A stretch of DNA of 63,818 bases, the filler included. It is 8 parts of 8 records of this genome, joined end to end, with 100 filler letters (N's around TTAATTAATTAA, not from the genome) between each part and the next. Parts side by side here need not be neighbours in the genome. Positions count along the whole stretch, not along the records: positions 28,168 to 38,149 come from SRR31147125_14582; 7 more parts are not named here. One strand, given 5' to 3'. Under the pieces are notes generated by a model that was not told the origin of the DNA, did no database searches, and saw nothing but the letters and a program-made list of their open reading frames with translations. Both the position numbers and the translations under genes were made by a program. Below are positions 5,414-58,500 of the stretch, piece after piece (within the stretch, counting starts at the first letter, position 1; each line of letters begins with the position of its first letter).

Positions 5414-5513
5414 NNNNNNNNNNNNNNNNNNNNNNNNNNNNNNNNNNNNNNNNNNNNTTAATTAATTAANNNNNNNNNNNNNNNNNNNNNNNNNNNNNNN
5501 NNNNNNNNNNNNN
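5414..5513. other. Artificial contig spacer
   Basis: N44-TTAATTAATTAA-N44, which has stops in all six frames. Identical to the six other spacers. Confidence 0.99.
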
Positions 5514-19403: not shown

Positions 19404-19503
19404 NNNNNNNNNNNNNNNNNNNNNNNNNNNNNNNNNNNNNNNNNNNNTTAATTAATTAANNNNNNNNNNNNNNNNNNNNNNNNNNNNNNNNNNNNNNNNN
19501 NNN
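19404..19503. other. Artificial contig spacer
   Basis: N44-TTAATTAATTAA-N44. Confidence 0.99.
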
Positions 19504-25970: not shown

Positions 25971-27946
25971 TCAAATCAACTGCCGAATCTCATCCAGGCG
26001 CTCTTTGGTTGCCATCATTCCCCGCTCCATCAACACCCGGCCTTTATGGAAATCATCCCAGGCAAAGCCTTGCACATCGGGATAAAGAACAATATCGGCT
26101 TGTTCCGCATAATTACTGACAGCCCGGCCATGAACGATACTCATGGTACTGGAGATGACGCTCATTATCCCGGGCGGTTTGCCGTCGATTATCCCTTCTT
26201 GCGTCTGCTTTTCCACACAAACGGCAATCACTCGGTCCGCCCCTTTTTGAATCAATCGATCCACCGGAACAGGATTGAGCAACCCTCCATCCACCATCCA
26301 ACGACCATTGTATCCATAGGGTTCAAAAATACCGGGAATGGAGATACTGGCCCTAACCGCCTTGGCCACGCTCCCCTGCTCCATCAACACCTCTTCGCCG
26401 TTCAGGATATCCACCCCTACAAAATAAGACGGAATCTTCAAATCCAGAAAATCGGCATCATCGATGGCATTGGCCACCAGGTGCATGGCCTTTCTTCCTT
26501 TCAGCACCCCCTGGAAGGGCAATGTATAATCGAAAATTTCTCTCCTTGCAATTTTTCTGGACGGGAACAGGTCAATGGTGTTGCGCTTCAAGTGGTCAAC
26601 AGATGCCGCTGCCCCGTAAATCCCCCCCACCAGTGCCCCCATGCTGGTTCCGGCGATCATGTCGATGGGAATACCTTCATCTTCCAACACCTTGAGCACT
26701 CCGATATGGGCCCATCCCCTGGCAGCGCCGGCGCCAAGAGCAAGTCCGACCCGCACCCCGGCAATCTCCCGGGCCACGGCCCGTGAGCCTTTGATGGGAA
26801 ATCGCTTTTCCGTATCGATGCGATCCTGATAGGCACTGTCCGACCGCTCCACCCAAATTTGCGGCACCTCGGACAAATTGAGTCGTTCCTGAAGATCCTG
26901 CCGCGCCATTCCCCGTTCACCTAAAAGGTGGCTTACCCCCACACGTATTCGATCAAGTCCCGGCCCGGTGATCTTCTCGATTTCATTGAGGCGCTGCCGA
27001 ACTTGAGGCAATGCCTGTTTTGTATTGTTGATCAACACCAGATTTTTATCGCATAAACGAACCAGCAGCCGCTCCAACGCATTGAACTCATGGGAGAGCG
27101 TAAAAAAAGACAAATCAAACCGATCCCTGAAACTCTCCATCAGATGGGGCAAACAATTTGAAAGATGGTGGGAAAAGCCTTGATTCACCTGCAGCACGGT
27201 AAACCCGGATGGATGCTGAAACCAATGAAAATCCTTTGCTTTGTAGAGCCCGGCGGGGAGTAGGTCAAACAGCGTTGTATCCGGACAGATCACATCGTAC
27301 AAGCCCAGTTTATGCATAACATTTCGAAGCTCATGCTGGGGTTCCACAATCAACACCTTTTTAGGAGATTCGGTGGAGATGTGAAAAGCGACGGAGTAAA
27401 GAAAATGATGAAGTCCCAAACCGGGATCGGTTGCCGATACCGCATAAAAACCGGTTTGGGGGGTGTGCCGCTGCCTCGACACGCCATATCGACACTGCCG
27501 TCATTGACCATGCGACGCGCATAATAGCGACTGAGATAGAGCCCCATGCTTTTATGCTTCACCAACAGAGCCTCAAACTCCGGACGATGGATGGAGTAGA
27601 TGGTGGCATCCAGACTCACACGGGCAGTGGCATTTCTGAGCCCTTCTGAAAGTAGTGCCATCTCACCGAAAAAATCCCCCCGTCTCAACTCTGAAAGAAA
27701 GACTTCACTACGGCCCTTCCCTGCCGATATGACCACCACACCGGAACGGATAATGAACATGGCATCGCCGAACTCCCCTTCCCGGCAAATCACCTCCCCT
27801 TTTTCATAAGCGGTGCACTTAAATTGAAGTGCCATATCTTGAATTTGAGAAAAGGGGATTGATGAAAAGAGAGGAATTTTGGAAAGAAAGCGTTTCAGGT
27901 CATGGTGTTGATCACGATTATTCGTAGTCATTTTCAACAGCCCCAT
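25971..27946 (-). CDS. cNMP-binding domain + patatin-like phospholipase (NTE/RssA-like), split by a 1-nt indel at 27446-27450
   Basis: cNMP domain GDFFGEMALL...RNATA; patatin motifs GAGAARG, GTSMG and DGG. One extra T joins PKPVF-YAVSATD. Confidence 0.88.
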
Positions 27947-28067: not shown

Positions 28068-28167
28068 NNNNNNNNNNNNNNNNNNNNNNNNNNNNNNNNN
28101 NNNNNNNNNNNTTAATTAATTAANNNNNNNNNNNNNNNNNNNNNNNNNNNNNNNNNNNNNNNNNNNN
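28068..28167. other. Artificial contig spacer
   Basis: N44-TTAATTAATTAA-N44. Confidence 0.99.
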
Positions 28168-28247
28168 CAGGCTGTTCCGGTGCATGCCCCGTTATTTACT
28201 TCGTTTATTCCAAGTTGTTTTAGTTCTTTTGAAATGTTGATTTTCAT
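28168..28247 (-). CDS. N-terminus of a probable ALDH7/AmaB-like aldehyde dehydrogenase (2-aminoadipate semialdehyde/P6C dehydrogenase), cut by the contig edge
   Basis: Reads MKINISKELKQLGINEVNNGACTGTA(W), resembling the 'LkqLGIxxxNxGxsTG' start of Bacteroidota ALDH7 proteins as I recall it. Only 26 codons are visible. Confidence 0.5.
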
Positions 28248-28280
28248 AATTTATTATTTTCTATTTTATTCTATTATTAC

Positions 28281-28487
28281 ACCACCCCACCGCTGAAAAC
28301 GCGGTACCCCCCTCCTCGAAAAGGAGGGGAAATTCGTGGTCCAAATCATATTTGTTCTTTCAAATTTTAAAACTCAATTCATTTTCTTTAGTCAAATAAT
28401 TTCCACTTCGCTATATCCTTTCACCGGCCCAGTTTCTACTCCTTTTCGAGGAGGAGTATCCCGATGGTTAGTCGGGAGGAGGTAGTG
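28281..28487. repeat. Inverted pair of REP-like double-hairpin elements
   Basis: Copies at 28281-28330 (+) and about 28435-28487 (-) share an identical core CTCCTCGAAAAGGAG, each preceded by a second GC-rich hairpin. Confidence 0.7.
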
Positions 28488-28501
28488 TTTTATTAATTAA
28501 C

Positions 28502-29704
28502 TTATACTCTCTCCAAAACCATAGAAAGTCCCTGCCCCACACCAACACACATTGTACATAAAGCATATTTGGCATTTGAATCCTGCAGCTGATAAAAAGC
28601 TGAAGTAATCAAACGTGCACCAGACATCCCCAGCGGATGGCCAAGTGCAATTGCTCCACCAAGCGGATTTAATCGTTCATCATTGTCATCCAATCCAAAC
28701 TCACGGATGCAAGCCAGCGATTGTGCAGCAAATGCTTCATTTAATTCGATTACGTCCATCTGATTGAGCGACATTCCTAATCTTCGCATTAGTTTATCGG
28801 TTGCGGGAACCGGCCCTATTCCCATAATGTAAGGAGGAACACCGGCTGCCTGAACACCCAGAATACGAACTTTAGGAGTTATATTGTATCTTTTTACAGC
28901 GGCTTTGGAAGCCACAATTACCGCAGCAGCACCATCGTTTATTCCCGATGCATTTCCGGCAGTTACTGTACATCCTTCACCTAACACAGGTTTTAAAGTC
29001 CGCAATTTTTCCAACGAAGTTAAACGCGGGTGTTCGTCTTGTCCCACCAAAATTGGTTCACTTTTACGCTGCGGAATAGAAACAGGAATAATTTCTTTAG
29101 CCAGTTTACCGTTGTTTTGCGCTTCTGCTGTTTTTAATTGACTGTTGTGGGCAAACTTATCCTGGTCTTCGCGACTGATTTTACATTCAACAGCCAAATT
29201 CTCGGCAGTTTGAATTAATGGGTCGGTGCCAAATTGTTGTTGAAATTTCTTATTTACAAAGCGCCAGCCAATGGTTGAGTCGTACACTTCGGGATTTCGG
29301 GAAAAAGCTTGTGTAGCTTTGGCCATAACAATTGGTGCCCGCGACATACTTTCTGCACCTCCGGCAACAATAAGGTCAGCCTCGCCGGCCTTAATTGCAC
29401 GGGCTGCAAGCCCAACAGCTTCCATTCCCGACGAACACAAACGATTAACGGTAACGCCCGGAACCGACTCCGGGAATCCGGCCAGAAGCAGCGCCATTCG
29501 TGCAATATTTCGGTTGTCCTCGCCGGCTTGGTTGGCATTACCCAAAATAACATCGTCAACAGCGCTTAAATCCATTTGCAGATTTCGCTGAATTAGTGCC
29601 TTTAAAGGAATAGCCGCCAAATCATCGGCACGGATAGATGACAAAGCTCCGCCGTATTTTCCAACCGGCGTTCGGATAGCATCGCAAATAAAAACTTCGT
29701 TCAT
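28502..29704 (-). CDS. pcaF: 3-oxoadipyl-CoA thiolase (PcaF/PaaJ clade)
   Basis: ICDAIRTPVGKYGGALSSIRADDLAA, ANQAGEDNRN, catalytic NRLCSSG, DSTIGWRFVN, GHPLG and CVGVGQG. Confidence 0.9.
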   Translation of the reverse strand: MNEVFICDAIRTPVGKYGGALSSIRADDLAAIPLKALIQRNLQMDLSAVDDVILGNANQAGEDNRNIARMALLLAGFPESVPGVTVNRLCSSGMEAVGLAARAIKAGEADLIVAGGAESMSRAPIVMAKATQAFSRNPEVYDSTIGWRFVNKKFQQQFGTDPLIQTAENLAVECKISREDQDKFAHNSQLKTAEAQNNGKLAKEIIPVSIPQRKSEPILVGQDEHPRLTSLEKLRTLKPVLGEGCTVTAGNASGINDGAAAVIVASKAAVKRYNITPKVRILGVQAAGVPPYIMGIGPVPATDKLMRRLGMSLNQMDVIELNEAFAAQSLACIREFGLDDNDERLNPLGGAIALGHPLGMSGARLITSAFYQLQDSNAKYALCTMCVGVGQGLSMVLERV

Positions 29705-29706
29705 AT

Positions 29707-31041
29707 TTATAGCTTATTTAGTTTATCAATCTTCGGTTTGAACGCTTTAAAAGCCTTCAGAAGTCCTTCCGTTAGTTTGTCAATTTCATTCTGAGTAATA
29801 ACAGTTGAAAGCATACACGAAAAGGTATTTATCATCAAGGTATTTTCCTGGTAATACATAAAGTCGAGCAGCTTGTTAATCAATGTTTTTCCCTCATCGC
29901 TTAAGTAAGCCTCGCGATATGTAGTTGGAGGAGTTGCGCGCAAATGCATGCGAAACATAGACCCGGCACCGGTTACAGACATTGGAACATCTGCCAGCAT
30001 CATCGCTTCCCGAATCTGACTTACTGCTTTTTCCGTCAAGGCATTCAATCTTTCCACGGCTTCCCTGTCGTAATATTTCATTGCTTCGTAGCCGGCTGTC
30101 ATTGTGATCGGGTTGGCCGAAAATGTTCCGGAATGAGGCAACAAAAGGCTCTTTTCATGCGGGTCGAAAACTTTCATCACTTCGGCTCTTCCGGCCACTG
30201 CTCCCACCGGAAATCCGCCACCGATAATTTTTCCAAGGGAAGTGAGGTCAGGTTTTACACTATATTTTTCCTGTGCTCCGCCGTAATTTACCCTGAATGT
30301 TATTACCTCATCGAAAACCAGCAAAGCCTCATTTTTACGGGTCCAGTCATAAAGGGCTTCAATAAAATCGTTGTTTCCGGGAACAAGTCCCACTCTGTGC
30401 GGAACAGGATCTACTATTACACAAGCAATATCAGCGGCTTGTTTATCGAGAATACTTAAGGTGCGTTCAATGTCGTTGTACGGATAAATAATTACATCTT
30501 TCGAGACACAGGGCGGCGTACCGTGAGCCAAAGGAACGCTGTGTGGTTTGTCTTCTTTTCCCCAGTTAGAAGGATTGGCAGTTTGGCTGACTTCTGCAAA
30601 ATCGTAGGTTCCATGATAAGCACCTTCGGCTTTGGCAATTTTTGGCCGGCCGGTGTAAGCGCGCGAAGCTTTTATCATTGCCATAACCGCTTCGGTACCG
30701 GAGTTTACAAACCGAATGCGTTCCAGACTTTGTACACGCTCGATTAAATGTGTGGCAAAGGCCACCTCAATTTCAGAGGCAAGTGTGTAGGCCGTTCCTT
30801 TTTTCAGCTGTTCGATAACCGCATTTACAATTGGCGCGAACGAATGCCCGTGAATTAAAGCTGCCATATTATTGGCAAAATCTATTCGTTTTGTGCCATC
30901 AATATCAGTTATGTAACAGCCTGACGCAGTGTTGGCATAGTTGGGATATGGTTTTCGGAAAATGGTATTCCGACTCACACCACCAACAATAACATTGCGT
31001 GCTTTACTGTACAATTCCTCGCTATTTTCTTTTTCTGACAT
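29707..31041 (-). CDS. Class III PLP aminotransferase, GSA-aminomutase-like, probable beta-amino-acid transaminase
   Basis: NSGTEA, GAYHG, FDEVIT, LGKIIGGGFPVGA (PLP lysine) and HSGTFSANP. The N-terminus reads GGVSRNTIF rather than the HemL GGVNSPVRAF. Confidence 0.85.
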   Translation of the reverse strand: MSEKENSEELYSKARNVIVGGVSRNTIFRKPYPNYANTASGCYITDIDGTKRIDFANNMAALIHGHSFAPIVNAVIEQLKKGTAYTLASEIEVAFATHLIERVQSLERIRFVNSGTEAVMAMIKASRAYTGRPKIAKAEGAYHGTYDFAEVSQTANPSNWGKEDKPHSVPLAHGTPPCVSKDVIIYPYNDIERTLSILDKQAADIACVIVDPVPHRVGLVPGNNDFIEALYDWTRKNEALLVFDEVITFRVNYGGAQEKYSVKPDLTSLGKIIGGGFPVGAVAGRAEVMKVFDPHEKSLLLPHSGTFSANPITMTAGYEAMKYYDREAVERLNALTEKAVSQIREAMMLADVPMSVTGAGSMFRMHLRATPPTTYREAYLSDEGKTLINKLLDFMYYQENTLMINTFSCMLSTVITQNEIDKLTEGLLKAFKAFKPKIDKLNKL

Positions 31042-31060
31042 AGCTTCAGTTTTTATTGAA

Positions 31061-31717
31061 TTATGACAAATGCAATTCAGCTTCGGTATGTTCCTGCAGA
31101 AACTTAAAATCCACTCCGGGAGCTAATTCCCTGACGAAAAGCTTTTTATCTTTCACATCAATTATTGCGAAGTTGGTATAGATTCTACTTACCACATTTT
31201 TACCCGTTAAAGGGTAAGTGCATTGTTTTACAATTTTAGGCACACCCGTTTTTGTGATGTGTTTTGTAATAACAAAAATGGTTTTTACGCCGGCTACCAA
31301 ATCCATGGCGCCACCAACTGCCGGAATATCATTTGGATTACCGGTAGACCAGTTGGCTAAATCGCCCTCTTCAGAGACCTGATAGGCTCCCAAAACACAA
31401 ATATCAATGTGTCCTCCACGTATCATCGAAAAGCTGTCGGCATGATGAAAATAAGCAGCACCGGGAATTGCCGTAACGTATTTTTTACCGGCGTTTACCA
31501 ATTCCGGATCTTGCTTGCCCTCATCGGCAACTTTGCCCATTCCGAGCAAACCGTTTTCGGTGTGGTAAATAACCTCGCGGCCTTCGGGAATAAAACCGGC
31601 CACCATTTCAGGAATCCCAATTCCAAGATTCACATACGCACCATCGTAAATATCCATGGCCACTTTTTGTGCCATTTCTGCGGTGGTCCAGCCAATGGTT
31701 TTAGTATTTAATTCCAT
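31061..31717 (-). CDS. pcaJ: 3-oxoacid (3-oxoadipate) CoA-transferase subunit B
   Basis: YVNLGIGIP, catalytic Glu in HTENG, SFSMIRGGH and PAVGGAMDL. The start is more likely the ATG at 31717 than 31753. Confidence 0.85.
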   Translation of the reverse strand: MELNTKTIGWTTAEMAQKVAMDIYDGAYVNLGIGIPEMVAGFIPEGREVIYHTENGLLGMGKVADEGKQDPELVNAGKKYVTAIPGAAYFHHADSFSMIRGGHIDICVLGAYQVSEEGDLANWSTGNPNDIPAVGGAMDLVAGVKTIFVITKHITKTGVPKIVKQCTYPLTGKNVVSRIYTNFAIIDVKDKKLFVRELAPGVDFKFLQEHTEAELHLS

Positions 31718-32423
31718 GATATTTTTCGTTTTTTGCAACCAGTTTCGATTCATCTGCCGGATTATTAACCTCCACTACGCGATGCACAAAAATGCCCGGT
31801 GTAATTACGTGTTCCGGATTTATTTCGCCCAATTCTACAACTTGTTTTGCCTGAACAATTGTTGTTTTTGCAGCCATGCACATTACCGGTCCAAAATTTC
31901 GGGCGGTTTTGTTGTAAATCAGATTTCCATATTTGTCGGCAGCAGCGCATTTTACCAATGCAAAATCGGCTTGAATGGCTTTTTCCATTACATAGCTTTT
32001 CCCATTAAATTGGCGTTGTTCCTTTCCATCGGCCAAGGGAGTATTTACCGAAGTAGGTGTAAAAAATGCGGGGATTCCTGCTCCGGCAGCGCGGATTCTT
32101 TCAGCTAAAGTTCCCTGCGGAACCAGTTCCAGTTCAATCTCTCCGGCACGATACAATTCAGGAAAAACCACCGAAATTGCGGTACGTGGGAAAGAGCAGA
32201 GAATCTTTTTCACCTGACGATTTTCAATTAACGCTGCCAATCCAACATGACCACTACCTGCATTATTGCTTACAATGGTTAGGTTTTTAGCTCCTTGATC
32301 TACCAAGGCATGAATAAGCTCAACCGGACTGCCGGCTTCACCAAATCCGCTAATCATTACAGTTGCACCGTCGAAAATTCCTGACACTGCTTCTTGTGCT
32401 GTTCCAACAACCTTGTTAATCAT
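31701..32423 (-). CDS. pcaI: 3-oxoacid (3-oxoadipate) CoA-transferase subunit A
   Basis: MINKV...GFGEAGSP, SNNAG, the PcaI-type CSFPR, PQGTLAERIRAAGAGIPAFFTPT and ARNFGPVM. Confidence 0.87.
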   Translation of the reverse strand: MINKVVGTAQEAVSGIFDGATVMISGFGEAGSPVELIHALVDQGAKNLTIVSNNAGSGHVGLAALIENRQVKKILCSFPRTAISVVFPELYRAGEIELELVPQGTLAERIRAAGAGIPAFFTPTSVNTPLADGKEQRQFNGKSYVMEKAIQADFALVKCAAADKYGNLIYNKTARNFGPVMCMAAKTTIVQAKQVVELGEINPEHVITPGIFVHRVVEVNNPADESKLVAKNEKYHGIKY

Positions 32424-32429
32424 TAGAAT

Positions 32430-33987
32430 CTAACTTTTTTGTTTCTCTCTTTTCAATGCTTCCTCAAGCTGGCTTTCAATAATTTCCAGCTCATCCTCGT
32501 AGAAATATTTATCTGCTTTGTAGGGCTTCAGTTTTTCAATGGTATTTTCCTGTTCGTCGTATTCAGCAAAATACACGTCGCTCATCCAGGTCATATTCCG
32601 TGCTTCGTTAAACTTCAGTGCAAAAACCTTTTCGCCATTAATTTTGGTAGTACCGAGCAACGATGTTTTTCCGGCCGACGAGGTCATGGTAATATATCTC
32701 GACGGGCGGTTTATGGAAGCTAATCCCTGAAAAACTTTATTGAAAATTTTTGCAATCTCTGCCAGTGGAGCAGTAAAATAATGATGTTCGCCGGTAGGTC
32801 GTGCACAGTACATCGAGTGGAAACCAATTCCCAACATGGCCATAATATTGCCAAGGTCGATCCAGTTTTGTGCCGAGCGGTCGATATCTACTTTGCCATT
32901 TTCGTCTTTAAAAAGGCTAATGTGGTTCATTATCGGACTTTGACTTTTAATATTCAGCCCGTACTTTTTTAAACGACGCACCGCAGCAACAGCTCCCGGA
33001 TTCATTAATTCGCGCGGAGTAGAAAGGTGTGCCATCCACATTACCTGGATCTCCATTATCGACCACATTTCTCAGTAATTCCAGAATCTTTTTGAAGCTA
33101 TTACTCAACAAAAATTCGGGATGAAAGGTAATTGCTCGCGAACCAATTCTAACTGTTCGAATGTGTTGCAATTCCTCATCTTTAATTAAAGGTGTAAGGT
33201 ATTCTTTCAGACGTTCGTAACTAATATAACCGCCATCGCCACCGGTAATTAAAATATCGGTAACTTCTTTGTGCTTTCTTAAATAATTATGTACTTGTTT
33301 TATGTCTTTCTGAACAAACATATCCTCGTCGCCACGAACCTGTGCATGGCGGAAACAGTAGGTACAAAAAGCAAAACAGTTTTGAGTTCCGGCATCCAAG
33401 ATCAATTTGATAGGCGGATATTTGTGCTGGCTGCCCTCCAGAATTTCAAGCTGACCTTCGTCGTTGTAGAAGAAAGGCTTATTTAGTTTTTGTTTGCCAT
33501 CGTGCGGGTTGGTTTTCAGCTGATAAGCTTCAACCACTTTCTTTCGTTCCACATCGCTGGTGGCATCGAGATATTTTTGCACATCATCTTTGTTAATCAT
33601 TCCGGCCTGTGGAAAAATTAAATGATAAAGTGAGTCGTTTTTATAATTCTCACGGTCTATGGTGTTCAAAATATGTTTTGTTGCCATAAAACGGTACACT
33701 TCCAGAAAAAACTCACGTTCCTTTTCATCGCCTATTTTTATGCCTTTTCCCTTCAGAATTTGCATAATCTCGCGAAATCCTTTCAATCCGGTATAATGAG
33801 TTTTCCCCGTGAACATTGCTTCGCCGGTCTTCTGAAATCCGGAATACTGCGGATAACAACTTTGCAAACGATTCAGCAGTCCCAGTGGAAGTAATTCTTC
33901 GTCTTCAATAGTTTTAATGGTTTCCGGTGCAAAATCGTAGGCACCCAACATTGTTCTGATATCAGAGCTTTTTATTTCTCTCTTCAT
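32430..33987 (-). CDS. KamA-family radical-SAM/PLP amino-acid 2,3-aminomutase, about 518 aa, split by a 1-nt insertion near 33051
   Basis: QHKYP, CFAFCTYCFR (CxxxCxxC), DILITGGD, QSPIMNHI and the PLP-lysine motif SSAGK. Removing one base from GAT AAT GGA G ATC CAG gives continuous VVDNGIQVMWMAHLSTPRE. Confidence 0.88.
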
Positions 33988-34491
33988 CGTTTATAATCTG
34001 TTTAAGTATGTAGTAATTTCAAATAAAATATAGCACAGAGTATACGTGCTGACTCATTCCGAAGTTCTCTTATCGACATTCAATAAGAAAAAGAAAACAG
34101 AAATAAATAAGATGGCAAATGCCAATAAGAGTATGGAACATAAATTGTTGCGGCTGCAACTAATGCGAAACCAAATCATCATCGAGACACTCGGGCATGC
34201 CTTGATAAAAAAATACGGGACATGAATACGATTGTACCATGAGCACAATTTATGAAAATTATGATTGACAGACCATGATATTTTAGATGTTTTATAAAAC
34301 AGTAAAACATCAGGCTTTTTCTAATAAAAAATCGCCAACTTACAAGGCTTGAAAAATGAGTTTATTTAGTCGGATAACATTAATCAACAAAACAAGATTA
34401 TTCAACATCAACTCAAATTAGTAATTAAAAAATTGAACGAATATCAAATTTTTTCGTTTGAGGGAGTAGAAACAATTAAGGAAACAGAAAG

Positions 34492-35817
34492 ATGAAAGTA
34501 TTATTACTTGGCGCCGGTATGGTTGCCAAACCCATTGCAGATTTTATTTTAAACAACAATATTGAACTTACTATTGCCAGCCGTACAGTTTCGAAAGCTG
34601 AAAAGCTGATTAAAGACCGCCCAAACGGGAAAGCTTTGGAATGGACCGTTGAAGATATTGAGACACTCGACAAACTGATTGCTGAACACGACCTGGCAGT
34701 AAGCCTTTTACCTTATACATATCATGTAACGGTAGCCAAACTTTGTATTAAGCACAAAAAAAACATGGTTACCACCTCGTATGTTTCGGAAGAAATGAAA
34801 GCACTTGATGCCGAAGCCAAAGAAGCTGGAATTATTATTCTGAATGAAATTGGGGTTGATCCGGGCTTCGACCACATGACAGCCATGCGTATAATCGATA
34901 AGGTTCAGGCTGAAGGTGGAAAGATTAAAGAATTCTACTCGTTGTGTGGAGCCTTGCCGGCACCCGAAGAAGCAGACAATCCGCTTGGGTACAAATTTTC
35001 GTGGTCGCCACGAGGTGTGATTATGGCCGGTAACAATGGTGCAAAATTCAAAAAAGAAGGAGAGATCGTAGAAATTCCGACCGAAAATCTTTTTAAGAAT
35101 CCACTGAAAATTAATTTCCCGGAAGTAGGAAAAATGCAGGTTTATCCGAACCGAGACTCGCTGGCTTATATTGATATTTACAAGCTGCCAAACGTAGAAA
35201 CAATGTACCGTGGCACTTTCCGTTTCCCGAACTGGTGCGAAACTATGGATGCCTTAAAAACATTAGGACTTACTACTTCCGAGCAAAAATCTTTTGAAGG
35301 AAAAACCTACCGAAAAGTTATGGCTCGCCGACTGCAGGTTTACCCAGCTAATCTTAAAGAAAAAGTTGCCGAACGATTAAATTTAACACTTGGAAGTCCG
35401 GCAATGGAAGCCATGGAGTGGCTTGGCTTATTCTGCGACGACCTGGTACGAATGGAAGAAGGTTCGAACTTAGACTTGCTTACCGACCTAATGCTACAAA
35501 AAATGATGCTGCCCGAGGGTGCACGCGATATGGTAATTATGCTCCACTCCTTCCTGGTTGAAAAGGCCGACGGAACAAAAGAGGTAATTAAATCGCGCCT
35601 GCTTGATTTCGCTACCAAAGAAGACACATCGATTGCCCGAACGGTTGCTTTGCCTGCTGCCATTGCAGTTAAAATGATTCTGGATGGAAAAATTACAGAC
35701 ACAGGAGTTCATATTCCGGTAGCCAAAACAATTTACGAACCAATTTTGAACGAATTGGAAAAATTAGGAATTGCGATGGTTGAAGAATGGGGACTTTCGG
35801 AGGAATTTAAGATTTAG
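34492..35817 (+). CDS. Saccharopine dehydrogenase (Lys9 / AASS SDH-domain-like, glutamate-forming)
   Basis: LLLGAGMV, SLLPY, MVTTSY, NEIGVDPGFDHM, CGALPAPE..DNPLGYKFSWSPRG, YPNRDS, RGTFR and IARTVALP. Confidence 0.92.
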   Translation: MKVLLLGAGMVAKPIADFILNNNIELTIASRTVSKAEKLIKDRPNGKALEWTVEDIETLDKLIAEHDLAVSLLPYTYHVTVAKLCIKHKKNMVTTSYVSEEMKALDAEAKEAGIIILNEIGVDPGFDHMTAMRIIDKVQAEGGKIKEFYSLCGALPAPEEADNPLGYKFSWSPRGVIMAGNNGAKFKKEGEIVEIPTENLFKNPLKINFPEVGKMQVYPNRDSLAYIDIYKLPNVETMYRGTFRFPNWCETMDALKTLGLTTSEQKSFEGKTYRKVMARRLQVYPANLKEKVAERLNLTLGSPAMEAMEWLGLFCDDLVRMEEGSNLDLLTDLMLQKMMLPEGARDMVIMLHSFLVEKADGTKEVIKSRLLDFATKEDTSIARTVALPAAIAVKMILDGKITDTGVHIPVAKTIYEPILNELEKLGIAMVEEWGLSEEFKI

Positions 35818-35840
35818 AGTATAGAAATCGAGGTAGATAT

Positions 35841-35889
35841 AAAGACCGGGGCTGTGTAAAAATAGAAAATACAGCCCCGGTCTTTTTTT
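35841..35889. terminator. Strong intrinsic terminator, probably bidirectional
   Basis: Perfect 15-bp stem AAAGACCGGGGCTGT / ACAGCCCCGGTCTTT plus a T-run. Confidence 0.85.
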
Positions 35890-35904
35890 GCTAAATTTTT
35901 GCTT

Positions 35905-35946
35905 TTAAGAATGAATGCAAATATTTGAATCCAAGAGGTATTGCAT
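35905..35946 (-). pseudogene. Truncated VapC (PIN) toxin stub
   Basis: The ATG overlaps the upstream stop (TAATG) and encodes MQYLLDSNICIHS*, which matches the PIN N-terminal motif YLLDTNICI. Confidence 0.7.
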
Positions 35947-36185
35947 TAGAATTCAATCAAATCATTTTTATCAGTTCTCGAGTCTTTAATTTCTTTAATG
36001 ATTTCATCCGAATCTTTAGAATCTTCCCAAGCTCCAAACAGACTTTTTAAATCAAAATCTTTTCCTCTTTTTTCTTCAATTGATTCTGATAATTTCATAA
36101 TTAACTTTTTTTTCGAGCCTTTATCTAATCGAGTTAAAAATCTGAAATATCTATCTATCGTTCTATTTGATAAGGCAAGTCCCAT
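35946..36185 (-). CDS. Small probable antitoxin (VapB-like)
   Basis: 79 aa with LFGAWED...EIIKEI..SR; translationally coupled to the VapC stub. Confidence 0.65.
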   Translation of the reverse strand: MGLALSNRTIDRYFRFLTRLDKGSKKKLIMKLSESIEEKRGKDFDLKSLFGAWEDSKDSDEIIKEIKDSRTDKNDLIEF

Positions 36186-36596
36186 AACTTATAATTGTTT
36201 CAGTTTCAAATATACTACATTCTATTTTATACGGTTCTGTGCCCTCATTCTTAATAAAATCAAGATCAATGCTTCTAAACTGATAATTATTTATCTTGTA
36301 TTAAAAAATAGGAGTAAAATGCCAATAAAACAAAAACTCTTAACAGCCCTCGAAACGGAAAAAGATGGCGAAAAGAACGGCCACGAAGTCTCCAAAACAC
36401 AAAATTTCACGAAGACTCGCATAAATCTGCTAACAATAAAAAATAACAAAGTTTCGCGTAAATGCGCTTAGCGCTTAACTGGCAGCAAAACAACAAGTAA
36501 CAGATTGTGAGATTCTTGAGAAAGTCTGTAACTAACAGCGTAATGCAATGGAATGAAAGAATCTTTCCAAATTCAGTTTTCAATAATCAATAGGAA

Positions 36597-37355
36597 TTAC
36601 ATCTTCAAATCCCTTTCTCGCCTCCTCAAAAACACCAAACTCGCCCCGGCTAAAATCAATCCAACAGTCAGCATCTCAACCGAGCCCAGATACAGGTTAA
36701 ACCGGTCCAGTTCGCCCAGGTATTTATCGGAGTTTAAAATATGATGATTACAGCCAAACATTACCACCATCCAGCCAAAATGCAGGGCCCATGAATATCC
36801 AATATGGCCTGTGGCAAAAATCAGGTTGTTGCGGGTAAAGCCAACCAGAAGCAGGGTAATTAAGGCAGTAAATTGCAGAGTTCCTCTATCGAGGAAAATC
36901 CATTTGTAGAATACAAAGTGAACCAGCGAAAAAATTACGGCAAAACCTAAAGAAATAACTAAGGGCGAAAATTTTGTACTTCTCTTCAACGAAAAAAGGG
37001 CAATGGCTCCCAGCACCATTTCCTCGTTTAAAATGTAAAAAACATCGTGAAAATAATTCTGCCAGGTTCCGGTTTCAATTTCAATGTTTTTGCTGCTGCC
37101 AATCCATTTCATAATTAAAAATGAAAAGGCGGTTATAACAGCCACTAAAACAGCAGTTTTAAAAATGGTTCTGCCATTTAGTTTTACCCCGAGCATTGGC
37201 AAAAATTCATCTTTCCAGCGTAACCAGCCCAAAAAGACAATTAAAATTGAGCCCAGCATTGAATACCACCAACCCTGAAAATAATAGTACGAAAAGGCCA
37301 AATGAACCAGAACTATCAGCGAAAACAGTGCTATTTTTTTATATCGGGTAAACAT
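36597..37355 (-). CDS. CPBP (CAAX protease-like) intramembrane metalloprotease family protein
   Basis: Multi-TM protein with EE (NEEMVLG), FxxxH (FSLVH) and a further His motif (ALHFGW). Confidence 0.65.
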   Translation of the reverse strand: MFTRYKKIALFSLIVLVHLAFSYYYFQGWWYSMLGSILIVFLGWLRWKDEFLPMLGVKLNGRTIFKTAVLVAVITAFSFLIMKWIGSSKNIEIETGTWQNYFHDVFYILNEEMVLGAIALFSLKRSTKFSPLVISLGFAVIFSLVHFVFYKWIFLDRGTLQFTALITLLLVGFTRNNLIFATGHIGYSWALHFGWMVVMFGCNHHILNSDKYLGELDRFNLYLGSVEMLTVGLILAGASLVFLRRRERDLKM

Positions 37356-37411
37356 GCCTGAATTTATTCATTATAAACGATTAACAAATTTATTCGAATA
37401 CAAAAACACAG

Positions 37412-37454
37412 TTCGACTACGCTCACTGTGACAGTCAGGCTGAACGAAGTCGAA
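37412..37454. repeat. REP-like palindromic element
   Basis: Imperfect inverted repeat TTCGACTACGCTCA...TGAACGAAGTCGAA, intergenic. Confidence 0.65.
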
Positions 37455-37497
37455 GTCAGACTTGATAATTTCAATTAAACCGTTTCTGGTGCATTTT

Positions 37498-37899
37498 TTA
37501 CTCATAATTCTCCGACAAAGCAAGCAAAACCGTCTCCGCTTTCTCGGCATCGTTTTTATCCACAAAAATATGGTCGTGATAGTAGCCGGAAACTACATTG
37601 CAACTTATGTTGTGTTTGGCCAGTTCGGTAGAAAAAATTGCTGTCAGCCCAACTGCTTCTAACGAAGAATGAATCCTCAGTGTAATCCACGATGCCACAA
37701 ACTCGTAATCGAGTTTTAAGCGGTCGGCATGTTGGCGGTCTATTACAAGTGTTATTCCTTCTGCCTCGCGAAACATACAAATACTTTGCGTGCAGGTTAT
37801 TTCATCGAGTTCTTCTACGGTGGTAAAAACATATTCGCCATCGTTTAGTTGGGGTTGCATTCCCCGTATTAGTTCTGTAATATTTTTTTCTCCGGCCAT
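37498..37899 (-). CDS. ACT domain-containing protein (DUF2241 / ACT_7 type)
   Basis: MAGEKN...FREAEGIT...ITLRIHSSLEAVGLTA...ISCNVVSGYYHDHIFV. Confidence 0.9.
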   Translation of the reverse strand: MAGEKNITELIRGMQPQLNDGEYVFTTVEELDEITCTQSICMFREAEGITLVIDRQHADRLKLDYEFVASWITLRIHSSLEAVGLTAIFSTELAKHNISCNVVSGYYHDHIFVDKNDAEKAETVLLALSENYE

Positions 37900-38080
37900 T
37901 CCGAAAGGTCTTTTGGTTTAGTGTAAAAGTAATGAAATGTTTTTTTGATTCTGGATATTGGATTTAGAGGGCTAAAATATTTGCATTTCGTCATTTGAGA
38001 TTATTCCGATAGCTTTTGTTGTTTCAATCCACTTCTTGGGAGTAAGAGAAAAACTGTTTGAACCAGATTCATTTCTAAAC

Positions 38081-38096
38081 CCATCGAATTCGATGG
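38081..38096. repeat. Perfect 16-bp palindrome (REP-like)
   Basis: CCATCGAATTCGATGG. Confidence 0.55.
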
Positions 38097-38149
38097 AGTT
38101 AAAATCCAGATTATTCAGAATGTTGATTTTCATCTGTATAATTTTTTTT

Positions 38150-38249
38150 NNNNNNNNNNNNNNNNNNNNNNNNNNNNNNNNNNNNNNNNNNNNTTAATTA
38201 ATTAANNNNNNNNNNNNNNNNNNNNNNNNNNNNNNNNNNNNNNNNNNNN
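38150..38249. other. Artificial contig spacer
   Basis: N44-TTAATTAATTAA-N44. Confidence 0.99.
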
Positions 38250-44325: not shown

Positions 44326-44425
44326 NNNNNNNNNNNNNNNNNNNNNNNNNNNNNNNNNNNNNNNNNNNNTTAATTAATTAANNNNNNNNNNNNNNNNNNN
44401 NNNNNNNNNNNNNNNNNNNNNNNNN
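44326..44425. other. Artificial contig spacer
   Basis: N44-TTAATTAATTAA-N44. Confidence 0.99.
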
Positions 44426-49548: not shown

Positions 49549-49648
49549 NNNNNNNNNNNNNNNNNNNNNNNNNNNNNNNNNNNNNNNNNNNNTTAATTAA
49601 TTAANNNNNNNNNNNNNNNNNNNNNNNNNNNNNNNNNNNNNNNNNNNN
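49549..49648. other. Artificial contig spacer
   Basis: N44-TTAATTAATTAA-N44. Confidence 0.99.
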
Positions 49649-58400: not shown

Positions 58401-58500
58401 NNNNNNNNNNNNNNNNNNNNNNNNNNNNNNNNNNNNNNNNNNNNTTAATTAATTAANNNNNNNNNNNNNNNNNNNNNNNNNNNNNNNNNNNNNNNNNNNN
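58401..58500. other. Artificial contig spacer
   Basis: N44-TTAATTAATTAA-N44. Confidence 0.99.

Follow-up and report, generated by a model that had tools for sequence, protein, structure and literature searches.

Introduction

KamA of Clostridium subterminale (2A5H; TIGR00238) and the mutase of the gene cassette reported here share, by alignment, a CxxxCxxC cluster motif, the GGD SAM motif, an Arg that follows the third Cys, and the lysine that binds PLP. However, the cassette mutase exceeds KamA by ~100 residues and has an additional helical region at its N-terminus, carries Arg and Thr in place of D293 and D330, and is encoded next to a transaminase, a CoA-transferase and a thiolase instead of kamDE/kdd/kce. 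Glutamate 2,3-aminomutase (TIGR04368), likewise related to KamA, has other residues in place of the lysine-binding aspartates and binds an acidic amino acid, as is proposed for the cassette mutase. It is said, in work attributed to Ruzicka and Frey in 2007, to have Lys/Asn replacing these aspartates, whereas the cassette mutase has Arg/Thr replacements, a different length and a different gene context.

The known continuations from 2-aminoadipate proceed via 2-oxoadipate to glutaryl-CoA or 2-hydroxyglutarate. The saccharopine and LAT-Pcd pathways resemble the present system upstream, as lysine-ketoglutarate reductase (LKR), a LYS9-type dehydrogenase, ALDH7 and lysine 6-transaminase are encoded beside or alongside the cassette, but they differ in the continuation, where the cassette route would shift the amine to C3. 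The product, 3-aminoadipate, is to our knowledge not an established metabolite. The lower beta-ketoadipate pathway (PcaIJ and PcaF) involves the same two families and the same proposed conversion of 3-oxoadipate to succinyl-CoA and acetyl-CoA; it is fed by aromatic ring cleavage, whereas the cassette would be fed by an amino acid via a beta-amino intermediate.

According to PMC3149608, the variant lysine fermentation of Ca. Cloacamonas acidaminovorans also combines a radical-SAM 2,3-aminomutase, a HemL-like beta-transaminase and a family I CoA-transferase, with a beta-ketoacyl-CoA as the end product in lysine breakdown. That route passes beta-lysine and 3,5-diaminohexanoate and, by way of Kce, ends in C4 units, while the cassette route would retain the C6 skeleton until thiolysis. 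The omega-transaminase 6K8H of Sphaerobacter thermophilus, as described in PMC10589169, acts on beta-/gamma-amino acids; its catalytic Lys and a proposed carboxylate-binding Arg are shared with the cassette transaminase. 6K8H has a broad substrate range and is not known to serve any particular pathway. A 3-aminoadipate activity is putative for both transaminases.

Gene organization and proposed pathway

The window, i.e. the whole stretch of DNA analysed (63,818 nucleotides), consists of eight contigs joined by N44-TTAATTAATTAA-N44 spacers. The contig of interest occupies window positions 28168-38149 (10 kb), and the DNA to the left of 28168 is unrelated because the window joins separate contigs. 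The following features were assigned:

28168..28247, minus strand: ALDH7-type L-piperideine-6-carboxylate (2-aminoadipate semialdehyde) dehydrogenase, first 26 codons, gene cut by the contig end (ORF, tblastn)
28302..28463, no strand: intergenic inverted-repeat pair flanked by the thiolase and ALDH genes; each 31-nt arm contains a 16-nt palindrome
28502..29704, minus strand: predicted 3-oxoadipyl-CoA thiolase (PcaF/PaaJ type), 400 aa (TIGR02430, NF006551)
29707..31041, minus strand: class III aminotransferase of GSAM-like type, 444 aa, putative transaminase of 3-aminoadipate or 3-aminoadipyl-CoA (PF00202)
31061..31717, minus strand: 3-oxoacid CoA-transferase subunit B, 218 aa (TIGR02428)
31701..32423, minus strand: 3-oxoacid CoA-transferase subunit A, 240 aa (TIGR02429)
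32430..33987, minus strand: radical-SAM, PLP-type aminomutase, KamA-related, proposed 2-aminoadipate 2,3-aminomutase, frame split near 33051 (ORFs, hhalign, AF2 fold)
33988..34491, no strand: divergent intergenic region, 504 nt, presumed promoters (coordinates)
34492..35817, plus strand: saccharopine dehydrogenase, LYS9 / glutamate-forming type, 441 aa (PF16653, PF03435)

The minus-strand genes thus follow in the order mutase-like, CoA-transferase A, CoA-transferase B, class III transaminase, PcaF-type thiolase and ALDH7-type start. A preliminary description had claimed an operon of the first five, and the ORFs and family profile matches bore this out: the mutase and CoA-transferase A are 6 nt apart, subunits A and B overlap by 17 nt (with the B start at ATG 31717), and gaps of 19 and 2 nt precede the transaminase and the thiolase, respectively. 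The ALDH7-like start and the divergent saccharopine dehydrogenase of that description were also found, the former 254 nt beyond the thiolase (ORF start at 28247), the latter across 504 nt where ~500 bp had been stated. The divergent intergenic region gave no Rfam match, and promoter-like matches in it were no commoner than in shuffles. The inverted-repeat arm occurs in two exact copies in the window, versus 0.04 expected by chance.

Based on gene content, family assignments, synteny, co-occurrence and active-site substitutions, it is proposed that the cassette probably serves the catabolism of L-2-aminoadipate via 3-aminoadipate, with the transaminase and CoA-transferase steps in either order. 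We infer all substrates and products, as well as the order of the second and third steps, from sequence. The radical-SAM, PLP-dependent 2,3-aminomutase would shift the amine from C2 to C3, converting 2-aminoadipate to 3-aminoadipate, which the GSAM-like class III transaminase would turn into 3-oxoadipate, likely with 2-oxoglutarate as the acceptor. The SCOT/PcaIJ-type transferase would then form 3-oxoadipyl-CoA from 3-oxoadipate and succinyl-CoA, and the PcaF-type thiolase would cleave it to acetyl-CoA and succinyl-CoA, regenerating the CoA donor. If true, such a route would dispense with oxygen and with both 2-oxoadipate dehydrogenase and glutaryl-CoA dehydrogenase. The same pathway had been put forward in the preliminary description, and the synteny, supply-gene linkage, mutase pocket and thiolase type now lend it computational support; those computational checks called for in that description which were run all favoured it. 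A search of full-text literature, which that description had also called for, found no prior report; this way of breaking down a lysine product is probably undescribed.

Conservation of the cassette

Related loci were compared as the best 80 of 167, a set weighted towards Prolixibacteraceae. Mutase, both CoA-transferase subunits, transaminase and thiolase kept the same order and strand in 65 of these 80, so that the synteny on which the preliminary description depended was found and the arrangement is therefore not due to chance. Fourteen loci of the same 80 were cut by contig ends less than 5.7 kb past the mutase start, and the one differing locus (L013) has ALDH7 directly after the mutase. 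By deposited labels the cassette occurs in Bacteroidota, Ignavibacteria, Chlorobi, Balneolales/Rhodothermaceae, Acidobacteria and Cloacimonadota.

The names of the PcaIJ and PcaF families come from an aromatic pathway, and the locus could be read as an ordinary lower beta-ketoadipate/phenylacetate pathway with the mutase and transaminase as unrelated neighbours. This is hardly credible, as the two genes flank or interrupt the CoA-transferase-thiolase genes in those 65 loci, across several phyla, and no aromatic-pathway gene was recurrent in the flanks of related loci. Among five cassette genomes searched, none had pcaD over its cut-off and none had PaaA; these genomes accordingly gave no sign of another known source of 3-oxoadipate.

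The aminomutase

In the contig the mutase is present as two overlapping ORFs of 346 aa and 212 aa, with one extra base near 33051. The base is absent from an independently assembled Logan contig of X1, the likely source run (one contig, depth 5.9), and its removal gave an open frame of 518 aa with 86% identity to a full-length relative; therefore the 1-nt frameshift is probably an assembly error. The mutase belongs to a distinct KamA-related family, which comprises more than 1,312 relatives of ~520 aa.

The mutase is a distant, unnamed relative of KamA which scored under every NCBIfam cut-off, with 73.6 bits against the KamA family TIGR00238 (cut-off 199.2), 62.4 bits against the lysine 2,3-aminomutase model (cut-off 525.4) and 52 bits against the glutamate 2,3-aminomutase model TIGR04368 (cut-off 650). 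The earlier label of "KamA-family" accordingly holds at the superfamily level but not at the family level. Homology to KamA extended over ~317 columns (hhalign probability 99.9%, E 1e-32), and the best fold match of the AF2 model (pLDDT 93.1) was 2A5H with an E of 1.6e-16, the next match being at 3e-5.

Residues were mapped to the 2A5H numbering by aligning the mutase via a bona fide Draconibacterium KamA. The cluster cysteines C125/C129/C132 of KamA correspond to C205/C209/C212, R134 to R214, and the PLP lysine K337 to K441, while D293 and D330 are replaced by R397 and T434; all these mutase residues were invariant in 12/12 family members. Since D293 and D330 of KamA hold the epsilon-amine of lysine, their replacement by Arg and Thr suggests an acidic substrate for the mutase. 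Across the wider branch, paralogs without an assigned function included, 39/56 members likewise have an Arg at the D293 position, which is therefore not specific to the cassette clade.

The preliminary description had offered an alternative, in which the mutase would be a lysine 2,3-aminomutase and beta-lysine would be transaminated or oxidised, with C6 oxidation later. Some family members are indeed labelled lysine 2,3-aminomutase by JGI and UniRef, and lysine-pathway genes adjoin the cassette. We consider this order very improbable, given the Arg and Thr at the lysine-binding aspartate positions and the low score against the lysine 2,3-aminomutase model. Moreover, the substrates of saccharopine dehydrogenase and ALDH7 are alpha-amino compounds, and D. 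orientale holds a canonical KamA elsewhere in its genome (770.5 bits, over the cut-off), for which reason the cassette mutase, as judged from that genome, is not a spare KamA. Kce was found in 0/5 cassette genomes, which also counts against this alternative.

CoA-transferase and thiolase

CoA-transferase subunits A and B scored 364.7 bits against TIGR02429 (cut-off 128.5) and 295.3 bits against TIGR02428 (cut-off 243.55), respectively, the NCBIfam models being such that they do not separate 3-oxoadipate from acetoacetate transferases. The start of subunit B at ATG 31717 agrees in length with its relatives (214-225 aa); translation could also begin further upstream, at an ATG at 31753. The best solved relatives of subunit A were succinyl-CoA:3-ketoacid CoA-transferases (3CDK, 230.6 bits), with acetate CoA-transferase at 169 bits, and on these matches the cassette transferase is closest to succinyl-CoA-dependent enzymes.

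The thiolase of the window scored 641.8 bits against TIGR02430 (cut-off 597) and 666.6 bits against NF006551 (cut-off 605). For all 15 cassette thiolases taken from diverse lineages, the only matches at E<=1e-150 were three 3-oxoadipyl-CoA thiolase models, and by this assignment the cassette thiolases are of the 3-oxoadipyl-CoA type.

The transaminase and the order of steps

The transaminase scored 186.2 bits against PF00202 and remained under the HemL cut-off (346.7 vs 527.3). Among solved structures it is closest to 6K8H (375.7 bits; residues 8-424 aligned), and ForI, GSAMs and two beta-transaminases, 4AO9 and 2YKU, come next. R36 and K282 of 6K8H aligned with R24 and K271, so that both the Arg proposed for carboxylate binding and the catalytic Lys are kept. 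PMC10589169 describes free beta- and gamma-amino acids as substrates of 6K8H and proposes that the Arg holds the substrate carboxylate.

The transaminase could instead act on a CoA ester. The CoA-transferase would then make 3-aminoadipyl-CoA, the HemL-like transaminase would convert it to 3-oxoadipyl-CoA, and the thiolase would cleave the latter. With these steps the gene order is colinear in the 65 of the best 80 of 167 loci, and a possible precedent, likened by description, is Kat of Ca. Cloacamonas acidaminovorans, a "HemL-like" class III enzyme which, according to PMC3149608, transaminates 3-aminobutyryl-CoA and rejects free beta-amino acids. A free beta-keto acid, a kind of compound which easily decarboxylates as stated in PMC3149608 and PMC10589169, would also be avoided. 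Against this stand the use of free amino acids by 6K8H and the conserved R24. Furthermore, the transferase family is known for 3-oxoacids, and in the beta-ketoadipate pathway 3-oxoadipate normally occurs as a free intermediate. The CoA-ester order is thus a real but unlikely option, nested within the best explanation, of whose probability it takes about a third; the free-acid order is preferred as about twice as probable.

Supply of 2-aminoadipate

For this contig and other Prolixibacteraceae, 2-aminoadipate would be formed from lysine by LKR, saccharopine dehydrogenase and the ALDH7-type enzyme encoded beside the cassette. In tblastn, 25 residues of the ALDH start in the window matched the N-terminal end of the Draconibacterium (L007) L-piperideine-6-carboxylate dehydrogenase at 92% identity, and a full-length relative scored 803.1 bits against the NF050084 equivalog (cut-off 730) and matched human ALDH7A1 structures at ~540 bits. 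The saccharopine dehydrogenase matched PF16653 (267 bits) and PF03435 (93.3 bits); of the solved structures, saccharopine reductase 1E5L (322.8 bits) came closest, along with 2AXQ from yeast and 5L78, the dehydrogenase domain of human AASS.

Among the best 80 of 167 loci, the ALDH7 equivalog was present in 24, in 23 of which it was on the thiolase strand and no more than 2.5 kb downstream of that gene; a LYS9-type dehydrogenase was present in 26 and an LKR-like gene in three (L001, L002 and L074). LKR had been noted earlier as missing from the contig. An AlaDh_PNT_N (LKR/LYS1-like) gene was located inside the operon in Sunxiuqinia L001 and L002, between ALDH7 and the dehydrogenase, and in a rearranged position in L074 (a Cloacimonadota MAG), between the dehydrogenase and the mutase.

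The co-occurrence proposed for checking in the preliminary description was assessed by comparing 39 cassette genomes without an adjacent ALDH with an even sample of 301 Bacteroidota genomes; the p values ignore kinship, and some cassette genomes belong to phyla other than the comparison sample. LKR-like genes (30/39 vs 71/301; Fisher p 1e-10) and LYS9-type genes (29/39 vs 62/301; p 4e-11) were enriched, and the dehydrogenase subtype of the window itself (>430 bits) was found in 18/39 vs 4/301 (p 1e-15). Gene place lists, as read, put LKR and the dehydrogenase next to each other in 15/39 cassette genomes. However, the non-adjacent ALDH7 equivalog was not enriched (over the cut-off in 13/39 vs 150/301; p 0.06, in the wrong direction), with three further copies cut at contig ends. 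LKR, the dehydrogenase and ALDH7 were all absent in 4/39 genomes, which are MAGs of 2.1-3.7 Mb.

The lack of ALDH7 enrichment would suit a mutase with a different acidic substrate, L-glutamate being the most plausible, i.e. a second, convergent glutamate 2,3-aminomutase. Beta-glutamate would then give 3-oxoglutarate by transamination and, from it, malonyl-CoA and acetyl-CoA by activation and cleavage, or acetoacetate by decarboxylation for the transferase and thiolase. The Arg/Thr pocket indicates an anionic side chain only and not its length, most loci outside Prolixibacteraceae have no aminoadipate-forming gene adjoining the cassette, and no enzymes are closer to the transferase than the SCOT enzymes that use acetoacetate. 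We nevertheless judge glutamate distinctly improbable: the 15 thiolases best match 3-oxoadipyl-CoA thiolase models, with that of the window passing the equivalog cut-off, and the mutase scored just 52 bits against the glutamate 2,3-aminomutase model. The 2-aminoadipate-forming ALDH7 lies in the cassette transcription unit in 23 loci and directly after the mutase in L013, while LKR and saccharopine dehydrogenase are 3- to 35-fold enriched in cassette genomes. A glutamate route would also leave succinyl-CoA unregenerated.

For the preferred 2-aminoadipate route, the supply in at least one other lineage would run through lysine 6-transaminase and ALDH7. Cassette genome G003, without LKR and the dehydrogenase, has next to ALDH7 a gene that passes the lysine 6-transaminase equivalog (629.2 bits vs a cut-off of 520.8).

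Organization of the cassette

The window consists of eight contigs linked by seven N44-TTAATTAATTAA-N44 spacers (5414-5513, 19404-19503, 28068-28167, 38150-38249, 44326-44425, 49549-49648 and 58401-58500). As the contigs are separate, gene neighbourhoods are not readable across the spacers, and the analysis was centered on the contig at 28168-38149, referred to as the operon contig.

Features of the operon contig (window coordinates)
28247 (ORF start): start of a putative ALDH7-type (L-piperideine-6-carboxylate dehydrogenase) gene, 26 codons, cut by the contig end, 254 nt past the thiolase
28302-28332 and 28433-28463: pair of 31-nt inverted repeats separated by 100 nt, between the thiolase and ALDH genes
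28502-29704, minus strand: thiolase (TIGR02430, 641.8 bits, cut-off 597)
29707-31041, minus strand: class III aminotransferase (PF00202, 186.2 bits)
31061-31717, minus strand: CoA-transferase B (TIGR02428, 295.3 bits, cut-off 243.55)
31701-32423, minus strand: CoA-transferase A (TIGR02429, 364.7 bits, cut-off 128.5)
32430-33987, minus strand: radical-SAM aminomutase-like gene, found by ORFs and profile searches
34492-35817, divergent from the operon across 504 nt: saccharopine dehydrogenase, 441 aa
36597-37355: 252-aa ORF without a family, beyond the dehydrogenase
37498-37899: two-ACT-domain protein, 133 aa, beyond the dehydrogenase

The gaps of 6, -17, 19 and 2 nt described previously for the five cassette genes were reproduced from the ORF coordinates, and the measured 504 nt agreed with the earlier figure of about 500 bp for the divergent dehydrogenase. 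Each 31-nt repeat contained the same 16-nt palindrome, of which the window held two exact copies where 0.04 would be expected; the two arms could serve as paired terminators or attenuators or represent a small repeat element. Rfam gave no match to a riboswitch or to any other RNA on the operon contig, and promoter and terminator scans (21 vs 19.3 and 12 vs 8.8 in shuffles, respectively) performed no better than shuffled sequence.

The mutase gene was present as two overlapping ORFs of 346 aa and 212 aa. Alignment with full-length relatives located the break between residues VVDNG and IQVMW, with one extra base near position 33051. One public run contained 92% of the sampled words of the gene, and an independently assembled contig from that run (one contig, depth 5.9), covering 32430-33076, omitted exactly one letter at 33051. 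With this letter removed, the mutase frame was open for 518 aa and was 86% identical over 515 residues to P0001, a full-length relative. Based on the independent contig and the restored frame, the frameshift probably arose in assembling the MAG and is less likely to be a real variant.

The mutase and its substrate pocket

The preliminary description had assigned the mutase to the KamA family. The KamA-like motif, the PLP lysine and the fold were consistent with this assignment, but all NCBIfam cut-offs were missed, and the protein is better described as a distant relative. P0001 scored 73.6 bits on the KamA family model TIGR00238 and the N-terminal mutase ORF of the window scored 62.1 bits (cut-off 199.2). 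The scores of P0001 were also below the cut-offs of lysine 2,3-aminomutase TIGR03820 (62.4 vs 525.4 bits) and glutamate 2,3-aminomutase TIGR04368 (52 vs 650 bits). More than 1,312 relatives of ~520 aa formed a tight family, which collapsed at 50% clustering into essentially one representative and fragments; the next relatives were 25-39% identical. A search for longer, fused homologues of 607-2000 aa returned none, the full-length form being ~520 aa. Most members were labelled 'hypothetical' by their sources, and the Protein Atlas offered nothing more specific than 'hypothetical protein' or general aminomutase names.

A profile of 56 sequences (the family and its relatives) was compared with the KamA of Draconibacterium orientale (L081), a bona fide lysine 2,3-aminomutase scoring 770.5 bits on TIGR03820, and aligned over 317 columns with a probability of 99.9% and an E value of 1e-32. 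The AF2 model of the mutase built on the 56-sequence alignment had a pLDDT of 93.1, superseding a poor model from 12 close sequences (pLDDT 58.9). The top Foldseek match of the former was KamA 2A5H (E 1.6e-16, TM(target) 0.64), followed by a match at E 3e-5. The predicted structure thus points to a KamA fold. Residues of the mutase were mapped via the Draconibacterium KamA to the 2A5H numbering, with the family side numbered on P0001.

Corresponding residues of KamA 2A5H and the mutase
C125/C129/C132 to C205/C209/C212: Fe-S cysteines (CxxxCxxC)
R134 to R214: Arg two residues past the third Cys
K337 (K352 in the Draconibacterium KamA) to K441: PLP lysine
D293 to R397: presumed lysine epsilon-ammonium position
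D330 to T434: presumed lysine epsilon-ammonium position

None of the mutase residues listed (C205, C209, C212, R214, R397, T434 and K441) varied among the 12 family members compared, and the PLP lysine position was kept in 52 of the 56 sequences of the wider set. An arginine at the D293 position was also found in 39 of the 56 members of the wider branch and therefore is not diagnostic of the mutase clade alone. In KamA 2A5H, D293 and D330 are the residues that we take to bind the epsilon-ammonium of lysine. Ruzicka and Frey are said to have reported in 2007 that glutamate 2,3-aminomutase has Lys/Asn in place of D293/D330. Judged by the alignment, the fold and these replacements, the mutase is a KamA-type enzyme with a different substrate pocket, and given the roles presumed for D293 and D330, the Arg/Thr pair would fit amino acids carrying a distal carboxylate and not lysine.

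The preliminary description had offered an alternative order of reactions, in which beta-lysine is formed first. This order is now highly improbable, as the lysine-binding Asp positions are occupied by R397 and T434 and the TIGR03820 score is far below the cut-off. It is also improbable, though to a lesser degree, that the substrate is glutamate or another acidic amino acid; against glutamate stands the score of 52 bits on TIGR04368, where 650 are needed. The substrate proposed for the mutase is 2-aminoadipate.

The lower half of the proposed pathway

The window thiolase exceeded the cut-off of the 3-oxoadipyl-CoA thiolase equivalog TIGR02430 (PcaF/PaaJ; 641.8 vs 597 bits). Fifteen cassette thiolases representing different lineages were compared with the models, and in every case the only matches at E<=1e-150 were the three 3-oxoadipyl-CoA thiolase models. 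Both transferase subunits also scored over the cut-offs of TIGR02429 and TIGR02428, models which pool PcaIJ with ScoAB and leave 3-oxoadipate and acetoacetate unseparated. The nearest solved relatives of the transferase were succinyl-CoA:3-ketoacid transferases (230.6 bits vs 169 for acetate CoA-transferase).

The cassette transaminase scored below the cut-off on HemL TIGR00713 (346.7 vs 527.3 bits), and separate HemL-like genes, 32-36% identical to it, were present in the same genomes. Its nearest solved relative was the omega-transaminase 6K8H of Sphaerobacter thermophilus (375.7 bits), with 4AO9 and 2YKU at ~192 bits. The catalytic K271 and the proposed carboxylate-binding R24 aligned with K282 and R36 of 6K8H, which, according to PMC10589169, acts on free beta- and gamma-amino acids. 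The predicted activity of the cassette enzyme is that of the GSAM-like class III beta-amino-acid transaminases.

PcaIJ- and PcaF-like genes might also belong to an aromatic pathway lying beside unrelated neighbours. Such an explanation is scarcely credible, since in five cassette genomes the enol-lactonase pcaD (TIGR02427) was never over the cut-off (best 193.1 vs 255.85 bits) and PaaA (TIGR02156) was found in none. Kce was likewise found in 0 of 5 cassette genomes, and the clostridial kamDE/kdd/kce/kal route was not on the operon contig, as had been noted previously. Hence, judged by these five genomes, aromatic, phenylacetate and clostridial lysine routes do not explain the cassette genes.

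The proposed route, whose substrates we infer, would proceed as follows.

Lysine to saccharopine, 2-aminoadipate semialdehyde and 2-aminoadipate: via lysine-ketoglutarate reductase (LKR), the dehydrogenase and ALDH7
2-Aminoadipate to 3-aminoadipate: by the mutase
3-Aminoadipate to 3-oxoadipate: by the transaminase
3-Oxoadipate to 3-oxoadipyl-CoA: by the transferase with succinyl-CoA
3-Oxoadipyl-CoA to acetyl-CoA and succinyl-CoA: by the thiolase

Taken as a whole, with CoA transfer and transamination in either order, this route is rather probable. Within it, an order in which CoA transfer precedes transamination is unlikely but deserves consideration: it would agree with the gene order of the cassette, and a precedent is Kat, the acyl-CoA beta-transaminase of Ca. 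Cloacamonas acidaminovorans (PMC3149608).

Conservation of the cassette

Relatives were sought in one genome per species; 167 were obtained, the 80 best loci were retained, and genes were called by tblastn with the window proteins. The neighbourhood on which the preliminary description had built the pathway was found to be conserved: the mutase, CoA-transferase A, CoA-transferase B, transaminase and thiolase stood in this order on one strand in 65 of these 80 loci (best 80 of 167). Fourteen of the 80 ended less than 5.7 kb past the mutase start. In the one remaining locus, from a Tangfeifania MAG (L013:10-3269), an ALDH7-type gene directly followed the mutase, and the 6.1-kb contig carried no transferase, transaminase or thiolase.

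According to the record labels, the loci came from Prolixibacteraceae (Draconibacterium, Sunxiuqinia, Mariniphaga, Maribellus, Tangfeifania), other Bacteroidales, Ignavibacteria, Chlorobiaceae, Balneolales/Rhodothermaceae, Acidobacteria and Cloacimonadota. The complete locus was present in cultured strains, e.g., Draconibacterium orientale DSM 25947, D. sediminis, D. mangrovi and Maribellus sediminis, which makes the route hypothesis directly testable.

Among the same best 80 of 167 loci, 24 carried ALDH7 (in 23 just downstream of the thiolase), 26 a LYS9-type (glutamate-forming) saccharopine dehydrogenase and three an AlaDh_PNT_N (LYS1/LKR-like) gene. In Sunxiuqinia, the LKR-like gene separated the ALDH from the dehydrogenase; the Cloacimonadota locus L074 was arranged differently, with the LKR-like gene separating the dehydrogenase from the mutase. 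In 16 of the 80 loci (best 80 of 167), from non-Prolixibacteraceae lineages (e.g., L039:9392-9946), the gene immediately preceding the mutase, in the same orientation, encoded a regulator with HTH_3 and cupin domains, which may sense a ligand and control the cassette.

An ADP-forming acyl-CoA synthetase (CoA_binding, Succ_CoA_lig, ATP-grasp_5) was encoded two genes past the thiolase in Balneolales (L059:17612-19741, L065:13812-15872). This enzyme might allow ATP to be recovered from the acetyl-CoA or succinyl-CoA formed. In Draconibacterium, an AI-2E transporter occupied the position equivalent to the stretch of the ACT protein and the 252-aa ORF.

Supply of 2-aminoadipate

Over 25 residues, the putative ALDH7 fragment of the window, 26 codons only, shared 92% identity with the N-terminus of the protein from the Draconibacterium locus L007, and the full-length L007 enzyme scored 803.1 bits on NF050084 (cut-off 730). 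The window saccharopine dehydrogenase, which belongs to the LYS9 (glutamate-forming) type, matched Sacchrp_dh_NADP (93.3 bits) and Sacchrp_dh_C (267 bits). Among solved relatives it scored 322.8 bits with saccharopine reductase 1E5L, 315.4 with yeast LYS9 2AXQ and 269.4 with the human AASS domain; the lysine 6-dehydrogenase-like PH1688 gave just 59 bits.

The preliminary description had asked, as a check, whether the mutase subclade co-occurs with LKR, saccharopine dehydrogenase and ALDH7 (amaB). This was assessed in 39 full-cassette genomes without an adjacent ALDH and in 301 evenly sampled Bacteroidota genomes; the Fisher p values ignore kinship, and some cassette genomes lie outside Bacteroidota.

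Genes in 39 cassette genomes and 301 Bacteroidota genomes (Fisher p, kinship ignored)
LKR-like: 30/39 vs 71/301, p 1e-10
LYS9-type dehydrogenase: 29/39 vs 62/301, p 4e-11
Dehydrogenase subtype of the window (>430 bits): 18/39 vs 4/301, p 1e-15
ALDH7 equivalog: 13/39 (+3 cut at contig ends) vs 150/301, p 0.06

Enrichment was seen for LKR and the LYS9-type dehydrogenase, which adjoined in 15 of the 39 cassette genomes as read from place lists. It had also been expected for ALDH7, which was not enriched and deviated in the wrong direction. The latter result counts against the proposed route, and the ALDH7 gap would need another aldehyde dehydrogenase or incomplete MAGs.

Four of the 39 cassette genomes were without LKR, dehydrogenase and ALDH7. 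The cassette-bearing Ignavibacteriaceae genome G003 had neither LKR nor dehydrogenase, and a lysine 6-transaminase that passed the equivalog cut-off (629.2 vs 520.8 bits) lay next to its ALDH7. In this LAT/Pcd module (L104:7192-10862), the lysine 6-transaminase was divergent from an Rrf2 regulator and ALDH7. Classically, 2-aminoadipate is also made by the combination of lysine 6-transaminase and ALDH7.

With moderate confidence, we propose an oxygen-independent route from 2-aminoadipate via 3-aminoadipate and 3-oxoadipate or its CoA ester to succinyl-CoA and acetyl-CoA. It would depend on a ~520-aa mutase branch specific for 2-aminoadipate, would be encoded by a mobile cassette occurring in at least six phyla by record labels, and would be fed by saccharopine or by LAT/Pcd.

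Novelty and implications

The preliminary description knew of no account of this route. The full-text literature searched, consisting of the main texts of non-subscription articles, gave none either, containing no aminoadipate aminomutase and no 3-aminoadipate pathway. There, 3-aminoadipic acid occurred only in untargeted metabolomics and meteorite chemistry, and the lone 'beta-aminoadipic' match was a misprinted reference title. All the enzyme families are known; the specificity, the intermediate and the joining of the pieces would be new.

If the proposal is correct, 2-aminoadipate would become the fourth substrate class among the few radical-SAM 2,3-aminomutases, and 3-aminoadipate a new natural metabolite with a biological role. 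Lysine catabolism would be finished with the C6 skeleton kept and with no oxygen, 2-oxoadipate dehydrogenase complex or glutaryl-CoA dehydrogenase. Each lysine would give one acetyl-CoA and one succinate, with recycling of the CoA donor. This would explain an 'aerobic-looking' saccharopine pathway in fermentative or facultative sediment and digester bacteria (Prolixibacteraceae, Ignavibacteria, Cloacimonadota). More than 1,300 proteins labelled 'hypothetical' or, probably in error, 'lysine 2,3-aminomutase' would receive names as well. A possible use of the mutase and the beta-transaminase is the production of beta-amino dicarboxylic acids.

Additional observations

The contig to the left of the operon contig carried patatin-like phospholipase and cNMP-binding genes (25971-27946) and had a G+C content of ~0.50 vs ~0.41 in the operon contig; it may be a mis-binned contig.

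A second family of KamA-like paralogs of ~440-500 aa, with no Pfam hit and 220-290 bits on the mutase profile, was represented by the following genes.

G002:C55 (L117:6286-7638), in Draconibacterium orientale
G003:C108 (L116:7128-8456), in the Ignavibacteriaceae genome, then a class I/II aminotransferase
G005:C75 (L118:2019-3515)

A true mutase ortholog was found in only three of the 301 sampled Bacteroidota genomes; the second family occurred in 39 further genomes of this sample and as a second copy in the three with the true ortholog. The contexts of the other KamA-like paralogs were unrelated to the cassette. Apart from the cassette, D. orientale (no Kce found) carried the canonical lysine 2,3-aminomutase at L081:1432-2766, which might provide beta-lysine for an osmolyte or for EF-P.
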